Below, one piece after another: positions 51,788 to 56,678 of a DNA stretch of 64,000 bases. Below the pieces are notes generated by a model, which saw nothing but the letters and a program-made list of their open reading frames with translations, did not search any database and was not told the DNA's origin. Within the stretch, counting starts at the first letter, position 1. Each line of letters opens with the position of its first letter. Source of the stretch: Candidatus Bathyarchaeota archaeon (lineage in GTDB: Archaea > Thermoproteota > Bathyarchaeia > Bathyarchaeales > Bathycorpusculaceae); NCBI GenBank assembly GCA_963828195.1, contig CAWHDT010000005.1, positions 480,001 to 544,000 of the forward strand, in the 5' to 3' direction. Made by a program: the position numbers and the translations under genes.

Positions 51788-52723
51788 GTGAAAGATTATG
51801 GCGGCAACAGACGGATTGGCCCAGTAAATCTCACGATTGGAAAAGGGGAGATCGTGGGGTTTCTCGGTCCTAACGGGTCAGGTAAAACAACTTGCATTAG
51901 GCTGATCTTAGGTTTAATGAGGTCGAGCTCGGGCACAGTGAAAGTCAACGGATTTGACCCAATCGCCAATCATGTTGAGGCTTTAAGGCATGTGGCGTAT
52001 TCTCCTGAGTTGCCTAATATTCAGACTTTTCTGAGCCCAAGAGAGCTTCTAAACTTGATTTCTCACGAACTCTATTTCCCAGATAACGCAAACAGGAAGA
52101 GCGAGATAGATAAAGTGATTGAACTAGTCGGGTTACATGACTACGCAGATACGAAGGTTGGCAAACTAAGTAAAGGTATGATTCAAAGGCTGAGCGTCGC
52201 CCAAGCATTGGTTGGCTCCCCTGAAACTTTGATTCTGGATGAACCGATGATCGGTTTAGATCCTGCGGGGGTAGCTCATTTTAGGGATGTTTTCCGAGAC
52301 TTCGCATCCAACGGGAAAGGTACAGTCTTCATGTCCTCGCATATTATGAGCGAAGTAGAGTCGCTTTGTACTTCTGTCGCGATGATTCACCATGGGAAAA
52401 TACTGTTCAAAGGGTCAGCAGACGAAGTGGTGGGAAAAGTTTTGGATTACTCTCTTGTTGAATTAGAGACTAGCCCCTTAACGCCTCTAACGGTTCAACA
52501 ATTAAAAGAAATTCCTGGGATAACCCAAATTAACATAGCCGATAAAAAAGATAAAGTCGCTATTGAAATTACAGTTTCTGAGCATCACCAAGACATCAGA
52601 CCAGAAGTCGCCGATATTGTGGTCAAGTCAGGCGCTAAACTCTACACTATCAAGCAGGGCGAAAACATGCTGGAGAGAGCTTACATAGAAGCGCTCAAAC
52701 AGACAAAAGGTGGCAAACCTTGA
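51788..52723 (+). CDS. ABC-2 exporter ATP-binding subunit
   Basis: GPNGSGKTT, LSKGM, ILDEP and SSH motifs. Confidence 0.92.
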   Translation: MKDYGGNRRIGPVNLTIGKGEIVGFLGPNGSGKTTCIRLILGLMRSSSGTVKVNGFDPIANHVEALRHVAYSPELPNIQTFLSPRELLNLISHELYFPDNANRKSEIDKVIELVGLHDYADTKVGKLSKGMIQRLSVAQALVGSPETLILDEPMIGLDPAGVAHFRDVFRDFASNGKGTVFMSSHIMSEVESLCTSVAMIHHGKILFKGSADEVVGKVLDYSLVELETSPLTPLTVQQLKEIPGITQINIADKKDKVAIEITVSEHHQDIRPEVADIVVKSGAKLYTIKQGENMLERAYIEALKQTKGGKP

Positions 52724-53580
52724 AACGCCCCGAAGTCATTTTCACTTTCGCTCGGTACGAAATCAAGCGTGCCATAGCGCGAAAAAAAGTTTTGGCTCTT
52801 GTTGCGTTCACGATACTTTTGACTGTGCTTCCATATTACGCGTTGTCGCAAGCAGGAACCAGCCTGATCCCCGCTTCCATCGCCTCATCGGTTGATCCGT
52901 ACCTTTGGGTTTTTGCGGTGATCTTGGTGGGTCCTCTCTTCTTGAACTTTACCGCAATCTTGATAGCTGCAGGTTCAATGTCGGAGGAATACGAGCAGGG
53001 CACTGCCGAACTTCTTTTGTCAAAGCCAGTTAGACGAAGTGACTACATCACAGGTAAATTCCTAGGTGGATATCTTCTGTTTCTTTTTATTCTTACTTTA
53101 ACCATTGTCCTGTCTATTGCTTCGGCGTTCACTTTTTTCGGCGTCCAAAAAGACCTCTACTTAATTCCAGGATTATTCATAGCTCAAGCCTTTAGTTCAC
53201 TACTATTTTTTTCTTTAGCGTTCATGCTTGGAGAACTAATCAGGCGCTCTTCCCTTGCTTACATTTTCTCGTCAGCGATTTTCTTTTCAAGTTACATTAT
53301 AAGCGTTTTTTTGGATGCAATCTTTAGGGCTACAGGCAAAGTAGTTTATAAAACCGTTCAGATGTATCTTCCATCTTCAGCCGCAGGTTCGCTTCCCTCT
53401 CAATATGCTTTGCCGAGGCTTCCCACGGCTCTGTCAACAGCCCTTACCTTCATCAACACTTCAACCATCCGGCCCACAATTAGCTTCTCAATCGAAATCC
53501 TGCTTGTCTACACAATCATAGCATTAACTATTTCAGTAGTCTACTTCTTGCGTGCAGATATTTCAAGAAAACTAAGTTAA
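52720..53580 (+). CDS. ABC-2 exporter permease
   Basis: EYEQGTAELLLSKPVRR...GKF motif and 6 TM helices. Confidence 0.9.
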   Translation: MKRPEVIFTFARYEIKRAIARKKVLALVAFTILLTVLPYYALSQAGTSLIPASIASSVDPYLWVFAVILVGPLFLNFTAILIAAGSMSEEYEQGTAELLLSKPVRRSDYITGKFLGGYLLFLFILTLTIVLSIASAFTFFGVQKDLYLIPGLFIAQAFSSLLFFSLAFMLGELIRRSSLAYIFSSAIFFSSYIISVFLDAIFRATGKVVYKTVQMYLPSSAAGSLPSQYALPRLPTALSTALTFINTSTIRPTISFSIEILLVYTIIALTISVVYFLRADISRKLS

Positions 53581-53686
53581 TTTTTCTTAAAAGCTTATCC
53601 CAATTTAGCACGCTATTTTTTCTCTTCTCACTTCGGCCTTTACCTATGGTATAACATAAAAGCCTGTTTAGGCAACATACCCAAAG

Positions 53687-55084
53687 ATGACCTCAACTCT
53701 CAAATGCATTCACTGCGGCAGTGAATTCCCAGTTTATCCTCTCAGGAGTAACTGTGAAAAATGCGGCGGCACATTGGAGTTTGCAGTTGATTTGCCCGAA
53801 GCTGGAAAATTCAAGTTTTCAGGAGTACAAGGGTTCTGGCGGTACAAAGAGATGATGCCGCCAGTTAAGCACATGGTCAGTTTAGGGGAGGGCGGAACGC
53901 CGTTGCATAGGGCAGAGAGGCTGGCTAAAGCATTTGGGTTAAAAAATCTTTATTTGAAGGATGAAACCCGCAACCCCACAAGCTCGTACAGAGACCGCGC
54001 GGCAGCCCTCTTGACATCAAACGCGATTGACCAGGGTTTTGAGGCGCTGGTCTGCGCAAGTAACGGGAACATGGGCGCTTCTTTAGCTGCTTACGGTGCA
54101 AAAGCAGGATTGATTTGCCACGTCTTGGTTCCCAAAGTTGTGGATGTCGGAAAACTCGCGCAGATGATTGCATACGACGCCGTCATCGAAGAATCAGGCA
54201 CCATTGTGGATGACTCTATTCGCAAAGCGGCGGACTTAGCCAAAGAAACAGGTTGGTACCAAGCTACTGCCGAACTTAACCCGCTCGTGGTTGAAGCCCA
54301 AAAAACCATTGCCTATGAAATAAACGAGCAAGCCCCGATCCCAAACTGGATTGTCGTACCGATGGGAAGTGGCGGAACAATCTATTCGCTTTGGAAAGGC
54401 TTCAAGGAACTCAAGCATCTAGGGCTCGCCGACTCGCTGCCTCGAATGGTTGGGGTTCAAACGGAGGGCTGTGCACCAATAATCAATCAACTTAAAGAAA
54501 ACTCGCCGCTGAAATCGTGTAGCCCGTCCACCCGTGCATTGGCAATACTTGTGGGCGAACCGTTGCAAAGCGACTTAGCCGTGAAAGCAATTCATGAGTC
54601 AAATGGGGTTGCTTTAACCGTTTCAGACAGCGAAATTTTGGCCGCCGAGCTTTTGGTCGCAAAGCTGGAAGGGGTCTTCGCAGAGCCAGCAAGTTCAGCC
54701 GCCGTGGCAGCATTGGAGAAACTGAAAGAAAAAAAGATTTCCAGTGACGACATCGTGGTATCCCTCATTACCGGAAGCGGATTAAAAGCGACTGATGTTT
54801 TGCAAGCGCTGAACAAAAAGCAGAAGACAGCAGGGTTGGGGCTGGCGGTCAGCACTAAGCAGAAGATTCTCAAAATTCTTAGCGAGAAGGACTCTTATGG
54901 CTATGACTTGTGGAAGCAGCTTGGTCAGATTATGACTCGCGCCGCTGTTTATCAGCATCTTAATGAGCTGGCTGAAAGGGGTTTGGTGGTTGGCTATGAG
55001 GAAGGTGGCAAAAGATTTTTCCGGATTACGGAGCGGGGAAGGAAGGTTTTGGCGGCTTTTGACGATATACAGTTGCTTTTGTGA
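53687..55084 (+). CDS. Threonine-synthase-like fold-type II PLP domain (Schiff-base Lys replaced by Arg) fused to a C-terminal PadR-like wHTH
   Basis: N-terminal Zn ribbon, SLGEGGTPL, NPTSSYRDR (canonical NPTGSFKDR), PMGSGG and EPASS. C-terminal ILKILSEKDSYGYDLW..AVYQHLNELAERGLV..FRITERG. Confidence 0.88.
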   Translation: MTSTLKCIHCGSEFPVYPLRSNCEKCGGTLEFAVDLPEAGKFKFSGVQGFWRYKEMMPPVKHMVSLGEGGTPLHRAERLAKAFGLKNLYLKDETRNPTSSYRDRAAALLTSNAIDQGFEALVCASNGNMGASLAAYGAKAGLICHVLVPKVVDVGKLAQMIAYDAVIEESGTIVDDSIRKAADLAKETGWYQATAELNPLVVEAQKTIAYEINEQAPIPNWIVVPMGSGGTIYSLWKGFKELKHLGLADSLPRMVGVQTEGCAPIINQLKENSPLKSCSPSTRALAILVGEPLQSDLAVKAIHESNGVALTVSDSEILAAELLVAKLEGVFAEPASSAAVAALEKLKEKKISSDDIVVSLITGSGLKATDVLQALNKKQKTAGLGLAVSTKQKILKILSEKDSYGYDLWKQLGQIMTRAAVYQHLNELAERGLVVGYEEGGKRFFRITERGRKVLAAFDDIQLLL

Positions 55085-55107
55085 TTGCTGTTCCGTAACG
55101 CTTATTT

Positions 55108-55133
55108 TATAGTATAGCTGCAACTATACTATA
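55108..55133. promoter_or_regulatory. 26-bp palindromic operator candidate over the pdxS promoter
   Basis: TATAGTATAG-ctgcaa-CTATACTATA with perfect 10-bp arms. Overlaps a TATA-like TTTTATA and ends 13 bp before the pdxS ATG. Confidence 0.75.
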
Positions 55134-55146
55134 GACGGGGTTCTGT

Positions 55147-56055
55147 ATGAGCGAAACCAAAAAAATAGTTGAACAAAAAGGAACGGACAGATTAAAAAGA
55201 GGATTCGCCAAAATGGTCAAAGGAGGCGTCGTAATGGACGTTACGAACGCAGAGCAAGCAAAAGTCGCCGAGGCTGCCGGCGCTGTTTCAGTTATGGCTC
55301 TGGAAGCTGTTCCCGCCGACATACGCGCAAGAGGCGGCGTGGCAAGGATGGCTGAGCCAAAAAGAGTGAGAGAAATCATTGCAGCAGTAACCATTCCGGT
55401 TATGGCTAAATGCAGAATAGGTCATATTGCAGAAGCGCAAGTTCTCGAAGCCTTAGGGGCTGACATGGTTGATGAAAGCGAGGTTTTAACTCCAGCAGAT
55501 GAAGATGACCACATCGAAAAAAGAAAGTTCACTCTCCCGTTTGTCTGCGGCGCCAGAAACCTTGGGGAAGCTTTAAGAAGAATAAATGAGGGAGCCGCCA
55601 TGATAAGAACTAAAGGTGAACCAGGAACAGGAAACGTCGTTGAGGCGGTAAGGCACCTTAAACTTATGAACAGAGAAATAGCGGCCTTAAAACGAATGTC
55701 AGACGACCAGTTGACAGAAAAAGCCAAAGAATACTTTGTCCCAATAGAATTAGTTAAAGAGACAAGAGACCTGGGAAGATTACCTGTTGTGAATTTTGCT
55801 GCAGGAGGAATTTCCACGCCGTCTGATGCAGCATTAATGATGCAGTTGGGTGCCGACGGATTATTTGTCGGTTCAGGAGTGTTCAAATCCAAAAATCCGC
55901 AAGCTTACGCAAAAGCAATCGTGGAAGCGGCATTGCATTATGATGACCCAAAGGTTCTCGCCAAAATCTCTGAAGGCTTAGGCGAGCCGATGGATGGGAT
56001 AGATACGTCTAAGATGGAAGAAAAACAAAAAATGCAAACACGGGGAACCAATTGA
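55147..56055 (+). CDS. pdxS: PLP synthase subunit PdxS
   Basis: [30 protein letters not shown] and FAAGG..TP.DAA motifs. Confidence 0.97.
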
Positions 56056-56678
56056 AAGTAGGCGTCATAGCAGTTCAAGGCGCCGTAACTGAACACATCG
56101 ATATTTTAAAGAAAGCAATGAAAGAGCTAAAAATCGACGGCGACGCCCTGCCTATAAGGAAAACTAAAGACTTAGACCACGTTTCTGGGCTGGTCATACC
56201 CGGCGGCGAATCGACAACAATAAGTCGATTAATTCTTGATGCTGGAATGCAACAGAAAATAATTGATCTCGCGGAAAAGGGACTGCCAATTCTCGGAACC
56301 TGTGCAGGCGCAATTCTTCTGGCAAAAGAGGGCGATGAACAGGTAAAGCAGACAAAAACAAGCCTACTAGGCCTCATGGAAATAAGGGTCAACAGAAACT
56401 CTTACGGTCGGCAAGTTGATTCTTTCGAAGTCAATTTGCAAATTGAAGAAATCGGAAAAGAACCTTTCAAAGGAATATTTATCCGTGCACCGACCATAGA
56501 AAAAGTTTGGAGCCCCACTAAAATTTGGGCTAAGCACCAAGCTACAATTGTAGGCGCAAAAAAAGGAAATATTATAGCCCTAACTTTCCATCCAGAATTA
56601 GGCGATGACCTAAGGATACATGAGTATTTCTTAAAAATGGTTTTAAATCAAGAAACTCCTAAGACAAATCAACAGTGA
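56052..56678 (+). CDS. pdxT: PLP synthase glutaminase subunit PdxT
   Basis: PGGESTT, GTCAG, RN.YGRQ.DSF, FIRAP and FHPEL motifs. Confidence 0.97.

Follow-up and report, generated by a model that had tools for sequence, protein, structure and literature searches.

Vitamin B6 supply in Gram-positive bacteria is described in PMC5320631 as being controlled by PdxR, a member of the MocR subfamily of GntR regulators, with a regulon consisting of pdxST, pdxK, and pdxU. MocR/PdxR proteins are the only known regulators responding to pyridoxal 5'-phosphate (PLP), and according to the same account Archaea have no MocR regulators. For Archaea, PMC5397151 describes RbkR, a riboflavin kinase and regulator in one protein, which binds palindromes of 16-20 bp upstream of biosynthesis genes and of ribU, the gene for an energy-coupling factor (ECF) transporter S component. 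In this report, a palindrome from a Candidatus Bathyarchaeota archaeon is analysed, which is located on contig CAWHDT010000005.1 within a stretch of 64,000 nt (positions 480,001 to 544,000), referred to as the window. It is flanked by a gene for a protein resembling threonine synthase (ThrC), which carries a C-terminal winged helix-turn-helix (wHTH) domain and is designated the regulator in the following, and by pdxS, the first gene of the operon for PLP synthase. The palindrome very probably belongs to a previously undescribed and widely distributed archaeal regulon for B6 supply. Full-text literature, a body of text in which subscription journals are largely missing, yielded no account of a B6 regulator from archaea and none in which a fusion of ThrC-like and PadR domains has this role.

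Compared to these systems, the locus shows likeness as well as clear differences. Shared with PdxR are the one-component design, the combination of a PLP-enzyme fold with a winged helix, a regulon for B6 supply (synthesis, salvage, and uptake in the case of PdxR), and the location of the gene beside a target. PdxR, however, consists of an N-terminal GntR-type wHTH and a fold-type I aminotransferase domain, whereas the regulator contains a C-terminal PadR-type wHTH and a fold-type II domain that has lost the lysine. The two proteins are analogous, not homologous. RbkR is likewise an archaeal vitamin regulator composed of an enzyme-derived domain and a wHTH, with palindromes varying between lineages, but its CTP-dependent kinase domain is still active and the vitamin is a different one, riboflavin. 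In addition, RbkR sites are located upstream of the TATA box and are read as activating, while the site described here overlaps or follows a TATA-like box. Because of the fold type, the family and position of the wHTH, and the lost lysine, the regulator family belongs to neither PdxR nor RbkR. The winged helix matches the PadR family (PF03551) above the cut-off. PadR proteins are dimers binding inverted repeats, and canonical members comprise about 110-180 aa with an N-terminal wHTH and a C-terminal dimerisation helix. In the regulator, by contrast, the wHTH is formed by the C-terminal 75 of 465 residues, follows an enzyme-like domain of 380 residues, and dimerisation is predicted to involve the ThrC-like domain. 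A Zn ribbon and a fold-type II PLP domain are found in ThrC as well, from which the regulator differs by an Arg in place of the catalytic lysine and by the added wHTH; a separate, lysine-bearing ThrC is encoded in the same genome. Judged by its sequence, the regulator is a ThrC paralogue turned sensor.

The palindrome at 55108-55133 reads TATAGTATAG-CTGCAA-CTATACTATA. Its 10-bp arms are perfectly complementary and the central TGCA raises the pairing to 12 of 13 positions; correspondingly, a repeat finder reported 13-nt arms with 92% complementarity and a spacer of 0. It is situated between the regulator gene, which ends with TGA at 55082-55084, and the ATG of pdxS at 55147, a gap of 62 bp. The sequence TTTTATA (55105-55111) covers the first four bases of the palindrome, and the sequence directly 3' of it, GACGGGGTTCTGTATG, contains no T-run. 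An initial annotation, made from the sequence alone, had proposed a near-perfect 26-bp palindrome in a gap of this size, overlapping a TATA-like element and lacking a U-tract, and all of these features were confirmed, including coordinates and arms. A genome-wide scan, which had also been suggested there, gave a single match in the 2.83-Mb genome (nine contigs, designated G000). The next best matches have 4, 5, and 5 mismatches in 20 positions (C1:407345, C1:52740, and C3:419599, respectively) and are judged to be due to chance. Within the window, the exact palindrome is also found only once when up to three mismatches are permitted, and none of 100 shuffled sequences contains it, although such uniqueness of one specific 20-mer in a window or a genome is trivially expected.

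The genomes compared were G000 and 40 relatives; of the relatives, 24 belong to the genus of G000 and 16 represent 11 further families within the order. The search pattern was TAGTAWAG-N6-CTWTACTA with at most one mismatch, and the reversed pattern served as control. A full-length regulator was detected in 20 of the 41 genomes, with the copy of G004 being in two pieces with stops. The motif is present in 19 of the 20 regulator-bearing genomes and in none of the 21 genomes without regulator, the contrast the initial annotation had proposed to look for; the control pattern yielded one match each in three genomes. In the twentieth regulator-bearing genome, G030, the sequence TATTCTAGTTACAACTATACTA with two mismatches precedes an S-component gene about 640 bp past the regulator. 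Apart from two matches considered below, the motif is always located directly 5' of pdxS or of a gene for an ECF transporter S component of the PF07155 family, termed ecfS here. Three sites are not on the same contig as the regulator. On contig C90 of G020 (locus L034), a perfect 22-bp palindrome is found 18 bp 5' of pdxST, with the regulator and ecfS being on contig C110, and G038:C66 and G035:C56 each contain one site before ecfS.

Protein and PF01680 searches detected pdxS in only four of the 41 genomes (G000, G016, G020, and G004, the last copy with internal stops), and it adjoins the 3' end of the regulator gene in just three loci (L001, L003, and L020). In all four genomes the palindrome is located directly upstream of pdxS, so that its conservation in front of pdxS orthologues, another check named in the initial annotation, is seen throughout the relatives that possess the gene. 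The unlinked case of G020 weighs most among them because pdxST is on another contig than the regulator. In G004 (C28:62296-64606; L020, L039, L053, and L054), both the regulator gene and pdxS contain internal stops, which indicate either a decaying regulon or assembly errors in this metagenome-assembled genome (MAG) of 71% completeness. Among the 41 genomes, pdxS was not encountered without the regulator. The contrast between presence and absence of the regulator was hence made on ecfS.

In most relatives, the gene behind the palindrome is ecfS, its product matching PF07155 with 99-116 bits. The proposal of a pdxS operator was therefore right in that the palindrome precedes pdxS, but too narrow in that pdxS is not the sole target. 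With the protein from L004 as query, S-component orthologues (identity up to 86%) were detected in 34 of the 41 genomes, many of them without regulator. The 260 bp around the gene start were compared for the best 30 of the matches in these 34 genomes. All 14 ecfS loci from regulator-bearing genomes possess the site with zero to two mismatches, whereas the best matches in all 16 loci from regulator-less genomes have four to seven mismatches, which equals background. With the same query, ecfS was not found in G000, G016, and G004, exactly the genomes in which pdxST follows the regulator, and G020 has both pdxST and ecfS. Moreover, the promoter DNA up to the palindrome is near-identical between loci of the pdxS type and the ecfS type (L001 versus L002). 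Together, these two observations suggest that pdxST may have replaced ecfS behind the same operator. At the only other PF07155 gene of G000 (C7:46843-47316, 34 bits) the site was not detected, the best match having five mismatches. The regulator-less ecfS promoters L188-L192 and L199-L201 share another pattern, TTTTTATA…AAAYAG…AAAC(C/T)…CTGTGAA, just before the start codon, which may be a different control element replacing the operator.

The known ECF transporters for B6, PdxU and PdxU2/HmpT, are assigned to PF07155 in PMC9997740. When the bathyarchaeal S component was compared to the sequences of the PDB (E<=1), the sole match was 4hzu_S (E = 7e-14). This entry is the HmpT/PdxU2 complex, for which PMC4860826 reports pyridoxamine as the substrate identified by mass spectrometry. 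In the alignment, the HmpT residues E41, Y120, N140, and Q143 are identical in the S component, and W76 and H84 are replaced by F and K, respectively; these residues are, according to PMC4860826, conserved among S components. These data support, but do not prove, that the S component is a B6 transporter of the PdxU2/HmpT type. Given the distribution of pdxS, most of the 41 Bathyarchaeia genomes may belong to B6 auxotrophs.

To a larger sample of 81 loci, consisting of L001 and 80 named Bathyarchaeia contigs, a limit of two mismatches was applied. The site is present in 79 of them; one exception is L117, where the contig ends at the regulator stop, the other is L135. The genome of Ca. Bathyarchaeum tardum (L134), for which a culture exists, contains regulator, site, and ecfS. 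In most loci it is located 12-80 bp past the regulator stop. In L089, L105, and L129, this distance amounts to 225-1225 bp, and the site is still directly 5' of ecfS, indicating that it tracks the target promoter and not the 3' end of the regulator gene. According to start codons called mechanically, the first in-frame start of a long open reading frame follows about 0-35 bp 3' of the site in most loci; in G000, the conserved 22-bp core ends 15 bp 5' of the pdxS ATG. The six central positions, which were N in the search, read T-T-R-Y-A-A at 0.8-1.6 bits in the 79 sites, so that the family consensus of the centre is TTRYAA, with CTGCAA in the source genome. Among the departures from TAGTATAG, 44 are asymmetric and three symmetric, the right arm being better conserved than the left one (16 versus 34 deviations), and fully complementary 8-bp arms are present in 48 of the 79 sites. 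Upstream of the site, positions -5 to -1 are rich in T/T/A/A/A and positions -13 to -8 in A, which fits a TATA box with a purine-rich TFB recognition element (BRE). In the set of 41 genomes, nearly all loci show the palindrome past the regulator stop, with TTTATTA or TTTAAATA 5' of it.

At many ecfS promoters (L060, L061, L064, L065, L068, L072, L073, L075, L080, and L127, and also in G001 and G020), a second site (…CTATACTAAAGTYRCAACTATACTA) overlaps the first by 5 bp, while the pdxS promoters L001, L003, L059, and L034 have a single site. The arrangement of the double sites suggests that two dimers could bind side by side.

The regulator protein was characterized by domain searches, alignments, and structure modelling. 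It matches the Pfam families PALP (residues 64-363, 255.5 bits) and PadR (residues 394-456, 39.5 bits with a cut-off of 27), and neither a GntR nor an aminotransferase class I/II domain was detected in it by Pfam. Residues 52-371 align with solved ThrC structures (E values of 1e-54 to 1e-63). In ThrC, the lysine of the motif NPTGSFKDR forms the internal aldimine. This motif of the solved enzymes (2zsj, 2d1f, and 6cgq) corresponds to NPTSSYRDR in the regulator, the Schiff-base lysine being replaced by R102. The arginine is invariant in 19 of 19 aligned orthologues, down to 54% identity, and among 80 further regulator loci, 79 have R and one has S at this position, and none has K. In contrast, the ordinary ThrC of G000 (C5:685192-686355), which is 41% identical to the regulator over residues 5-381 only, keeps NPTGSFKDR, and K is likewise present in the ordinary ThrC proteins whose genes adjoin the regulator gene in L146 and L157. 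Other pocket motifs are retained, in a form altered relative to ThrC (SNGNMGAS versus STGNTSAS, GSGGT versus GNAGN, and TGSGLK versus TGNGLK), and the N-terminal CxxC...CxxC zinc ribbon is invariant in the alignment of the 19 orthologues. Since the Schiff-base lysine is replaced, the ThrC-like domain is taken as a sensor and not as an enzyme, and the protein is predicted to be a ThrC-derived pseudoenzyme with K changed to R.

A homodimer model including PLP reached an interaction prediction score from aligned errors (ipSAE) of 0.83, with 0.00 for the best control, agreement between runs in at least 94% of the contacts, and a predicted local distance difference test (pLDDT) value of 86. Of proteins with solved structures, 20 of 30 that form pairs and one of 23 that are single chains reach the mark applied to such models. 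The interface of the symmetric dimer is modelled at residues 66-376, that is in the ThrC-like domain, and the pass may just reflect the resemblance to solved ThrC dimers.

All of the best 120 homologues of the regulator contain PF03551 and PF00291, and where a public name is given, it is 'threonine synthase'. The regulator itself matches the NCBIfam model NF004170 (PRK05638, 'threonine synthase') over positions 2-441 of 442 with 414 bits, the cut-off being 421, and in the best genomic matches of this model (about 700 bits, in G231 and G085) Arg takes the position of the catalytic Lys. The 'threonine synthase' naming of the regulator family is probably a systematic misannotation. It was also observed that NF004170, an 'equivalog' model named threonine synthase, spans the winged-helix region. 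Among named genomes, the 80 closest regulator loci comprise 79 from MAGs labelled Bathyarchaeia, Bathyarchaeota, or unclassified archaeon, and one on a contig labelled Limnocylindrales. Contigs labelled Limnocylindrales and Acidoferrales (L059, DATHCJ010000024.1; also P0052 and P0060) encode a Bathyarchaeia-type regulator with 81-87% identity, L059 in addition carrying the operator and pdxST; they are likely to be mis-binned archaeal contigs.

In a sample of 301 genomes, full-length proteins of the NF004170 type were also found in other Thermoproteota families, namely f19, f25, f30, f36, and f40, and the regulator copy in the 30 loci compared has R at the lysine position in 29 cases, the remaining one (L151) being unreadable. 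In f19, where the proteins show 32-37% identity, the regulator gene again adjoins a PF07155 gene. Genome G231 of this family, whose regulator is 37% identical, contains pdxS and a regulator-ecfS pair 400 kb apart, and both promoters share TTCTTAAAG(TA/AT)TAAACTTTATATT. The pattern CTTAAAG-NN-TAAACTTTA (<=1 mismatch) occurs exactly twice in the 1.6 Mb of G231, once between the regulator gene and ecfS and once 5' of pdxS. Its matches in four other f19 genomes are confined to the regulator-ecfS junction, and the controls gave no matches. The inner part of the Bathyarchaeia variant TAGTAAAGTTATAACTTTACTA is identical to the f19 core, TAAAGT-N4-ACTTTA. For f25, f30, f36, and f40, the neighbours of the regulator gene (gatE, EF-1 beta, AIR synthase-related, and others) revealed no link to B6, except for L142, in which a divergent PF07155 gene is located beside the regulator.

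A second, more distant subfamily of ThrC-like proteins with a C-terminal wHTH was noticed in G107:C5 (L218), G280:C9 (L219), and G025:C66 (L217), with 36-39% identity. It has Leu at the lysine position (NPTGSFLDR), and the L219 copy is divergently oriented beside an ecfS-like gene. Lysine-less ThrC-derived regulators may thus form a larger superfamily.

On the basis of these comparisons, the adjacent regulator very probably binds the palindrome as its cognate operator. What is found at these loci is a conserved dyad, which occurs only together with the regulator and precedes a coherent set of targets, pdxST and the PdxU2/HmpT-like S component. The initial annotation had arrived at a cognate operator of a dimeric repressor, and this view, now backed by the distribution of the site in genomes (19/20 versus 0/21), at ecfS (14/14 versus 0/16), and in the larger sample (79/81 loci), very probably holds. 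In the proposed mechanism, the regulator would most likely dimerise via its ThrC-like domain, its two winged helices contacting one TAGTATAG half-site each, with the half-sites 14 bp apart. The stretch from the TATA box to the expected transcription start would be occupied by the 22-bp site, and because of this position a bound dimer should block recruitment of TBP/TFB or RNA polymerase and thereby repress pdxST. Across Bathyarchaeia, the same site would control either pdxST, and thus B6 synthesis, or ecfS, and thus B6 uptake. Since both target classes supply B6, the effector is most likely a B6 vitamer, PLP or pyridoxamine 5'-phosphate/pyridoxamine, which would be bound non-covalently in the old cofactor pocket and act as co-repressor, resulting in negative feedback on B6 supply. 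Repression by B6 is the most economical reading and slightly favoured over all others taken together. With a probability of roughly 0.55, the regulator represents the first B6-responsive transcription factor family in Archaea, a ThrC-derived pseudoenzyme (K to R, in the sister subfamily K to L) that reads B6 non-covalently, represses pdxST or B6 uptake, is distributed throughout Thermoproteota, and is annotated as 'threonine synthase', including PRK05638, most Bathyarchaeia of the order being B6 scavengers without pdxS. If this is true, B6 control in archaea could be tested on a switch whose operator is delimited to 22 bp and whose regulon is simple, and the regulator would be a clear case of an enzyme becoming a sensor through loss of the catalytic lysine. 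Hundreds of 'threonine synthase' entries and one NCBIfam equivalog would have to be corrected, and the system could serve as a genomic marker of B6 auxotrophy and cross-feeding in Bathyarchaeia, an abundant uncultured lineage of sediment and peat.

Several points weigh against B6-dependent repression or limit the strength of the data. DNA binding, the dimer on DNA, repression and hence the sign of regulation, the transcription start site, and the ligand are features we infer from sequence. The change from K to R removes the canonical covalent attachment of PLP, and bacterial PdxR keeps its Schiff-base lysine; the argument for B6 therefore comes from the regulon and not from the pocket. Likewise, the substrate of the S component is deduced from similarity within PF07155, a family that includes riboflavin transporters (RibU). 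The winged helices are outside the confident interface of the dimer model. The site is placed between TATA and transcription start by a general archaeal spacing rule. In L135, the regulator is present, but no site with up to two mismatches was detected within the 2.5 kb searched. The two matches outside the known target set, G016:C9:28861-28882 and G026:C10:99474-99495, have one mismatch each, their centres, GAAGAA and GGAGGG, are unlike the family TTRYAA, and they are presumed to be chance matches. Finally, the search pattern was derived from loci that were counted later and the genomes are related, so that the counts overstate independence.

The palindrome could be the operator of the regulator and nevertheless follow another logic, with an effector other than B6, such as O-phosphohomoserine, threonine, or another amino acid in the ThrC-like pocket, or with activation in place of repression. 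The loss of the Schiff-base lysine makes it uncertain whether PLP is bound in the canonical way, and the case for repression is a geometric one. RbkR sites near archaeal TATA boxes are read as activating in PMC5397151, and in bacteria apo-PdxR is described to activate pdxST (PMC5320631). On the other hand, both targets supply B6, the S component having HmpT/PdxU2 as its sole PDB match, no threonine-pathway gene was seen at any of the sites, and in most loci the site begins at or in the TATA-like box, leaving 1-35 bp to the start codon. A site overlapping TATA and close to the start is the usual geometry of archaeal repressors, not of upstream activators. This alternative is therefore regarded as unlikely, but as the most serious one. 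That the palindrome serves as a promoter element or binds some other factor, and that its association with the regulator merely reflects linkage, is much less probable. The motif is A/T-rich with TATA-like words and adjoins the regulator gene in most genomes, which could mimic co-occurrence. Unlinked sites, however, are present only in regulator-bearing genomes (G020, G038, and G035), the second site of G231 is 400 kb from the regulator, and the 16 regulator-less ecfS promoters lack the site.

A function as hairpin in a nucleic acid, as terminator or 3'-end stabiliser of the regulator mRNA or as part of a 5' leader of pdxS or ecfS, is equally improbable. The short distance from the regulator stop in most loci would be compatible with it, and so would RNA folding, for which -15.1 kcal/mol and z = -2.6 were obtained. 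However, the stem is A/U-rich and without U-tract, a terminator scan was negative here, no Rfam match was obtained for 54900-55400 (E<=1), and the arm changes, predominantly asymmetric as given above, are non-compensatory, with just 48 of 79 sites being fully complementary. The site is also found before pdxS or ecfS without a regulator gene upstream (L034, L032, and L047), goes with ecfS when this gene is apart from the regulator (L089, L105, and L129), and is missing from orthologous ecfS promoters of regulator-less genomes. The TATA-like position before a start codon and the missing U-tract favour an operator over a terminator, as had been proposed initially. A chance palindrome without function, finally, appears conceivable only if the window is viewed in isolation. 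Perfect inverted repeats whose arms measure 10 bp and whose loop is 0-8 nt long number one in the window and 0-3 (mean 1.1) in 20 first-order Markov resamples of it, which is also a point against the operator reading. On symmetry alone, therefore, the palindrome does not stand out from chance, and what gives it weight is solely its conservation together with its co-occurrence with the regulator. The chance explanation is refuted by the conservation of the site, which is seen in 79 of 81 loci and with regulators as low as 54% in identity, and by a related core at 33-37%. Among all readings, B6-dependent repression through a cognate operator is thus preferred.

The features of the window belonging to this system are compiled in Table 1.

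Table 1. Features at the regulator-pdxST locus (positions within the window)
Feature	Position	Strand	Basis or remarks
26-bp palindrome as given in the initial annotation	55108..55133	.	sequence reading, repeat finder, shuffle test
Candidate operator core, conserved, 22 bp, TAGTATAG-CTGCAA-CTATACTA	55110..55131	.	conservation and co-occurrence with the regulator
Operator core, left half-site	55110..55117		
Operator core, centre	55118..55123		
Operator core, right half-site	55124..55131		
TATGGTATAA, 'weaker half-site' of the initial annotation	53645..53654	+	8/10 identical to the arm
Regulator gene, 465 aa	53687..55084	+	N-terminal Zn ribbon, ThrC-like fold-type II PLP-enzyme domain, C-terminal PadR-type winged helix
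Putative pdxST core promoter, BRE-like stretch followed by TATA-like TTATTTTATA	55097..55111	+	overlaps the start of the palindrome; sequence reading
pdxS, PLP synthase lyase subunit, first gene of the operon	55147..56055	+	PF01680, 341.6 bits; NF003215, 495 bits (cut-off 395)
pdxT, PLP synthase glutaminase subunit	56052..56678	+	PF01174, 184 bits; TIGR03800, 215.8 bits

The start of pdxT overlaps the end of pdxS by 4 bp. At the putative core promoter, a TATA-like A/T run, judged by eye and composition, adjoins the site directly, with about 0-35 bp between the site and the start codon. A scan for sigma-70 promoters and terminators, which is not designed for archaea, revealed nothing at the site.

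The initial annotation had also pointed to a weaker, related half-site at about 53645, upstream of the regulator gene, as a possible part of the operator system. The sequence does exist there, but a role as operator could not be substantiated. Close relatives carry a conserved AATGGCATAACATAAAAGG at this position, and ATGGnATAACATAAAAG is conserved there too. In the region from -150 to +10 of the regulator start, half-sites are not enriched: exact ones were found in 0 of 66 loci, and with one mismatch permitted in 7 of 66, versus 13.6 (sd 3.5) in shuffled sequences, the count covering 66 of the 81 loci because 15 with the gene off the standard offset were skipped. An autoregulatory half-site upstream of the regulator was rejected on these grounds. 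A conserved block, ATGGnATAACATAAAAGSC, is located about 30-45 bp before the regulator start (about 53640-53665 of the window; also L002-L006, L020, and L056-L063) and probably constitutes the regulator's own BRE/TATA promoter, of which the proposed half-site is more likely a part.

Directly 5' of the regulator gene and on the same strand, genes for an ABC ATPase (PF00005) and an ABC-2 permease (PF12679) are located at 51788-53580, for which no link to the B6 regulon was seen. Inside the zinc-ribbon coding region of the regulator gene, at 53708-53726, a perfect hairpin with 9-bp arms and a 1-nt loop (ATTCACTGC-G-GCAGTGAAT) is present.

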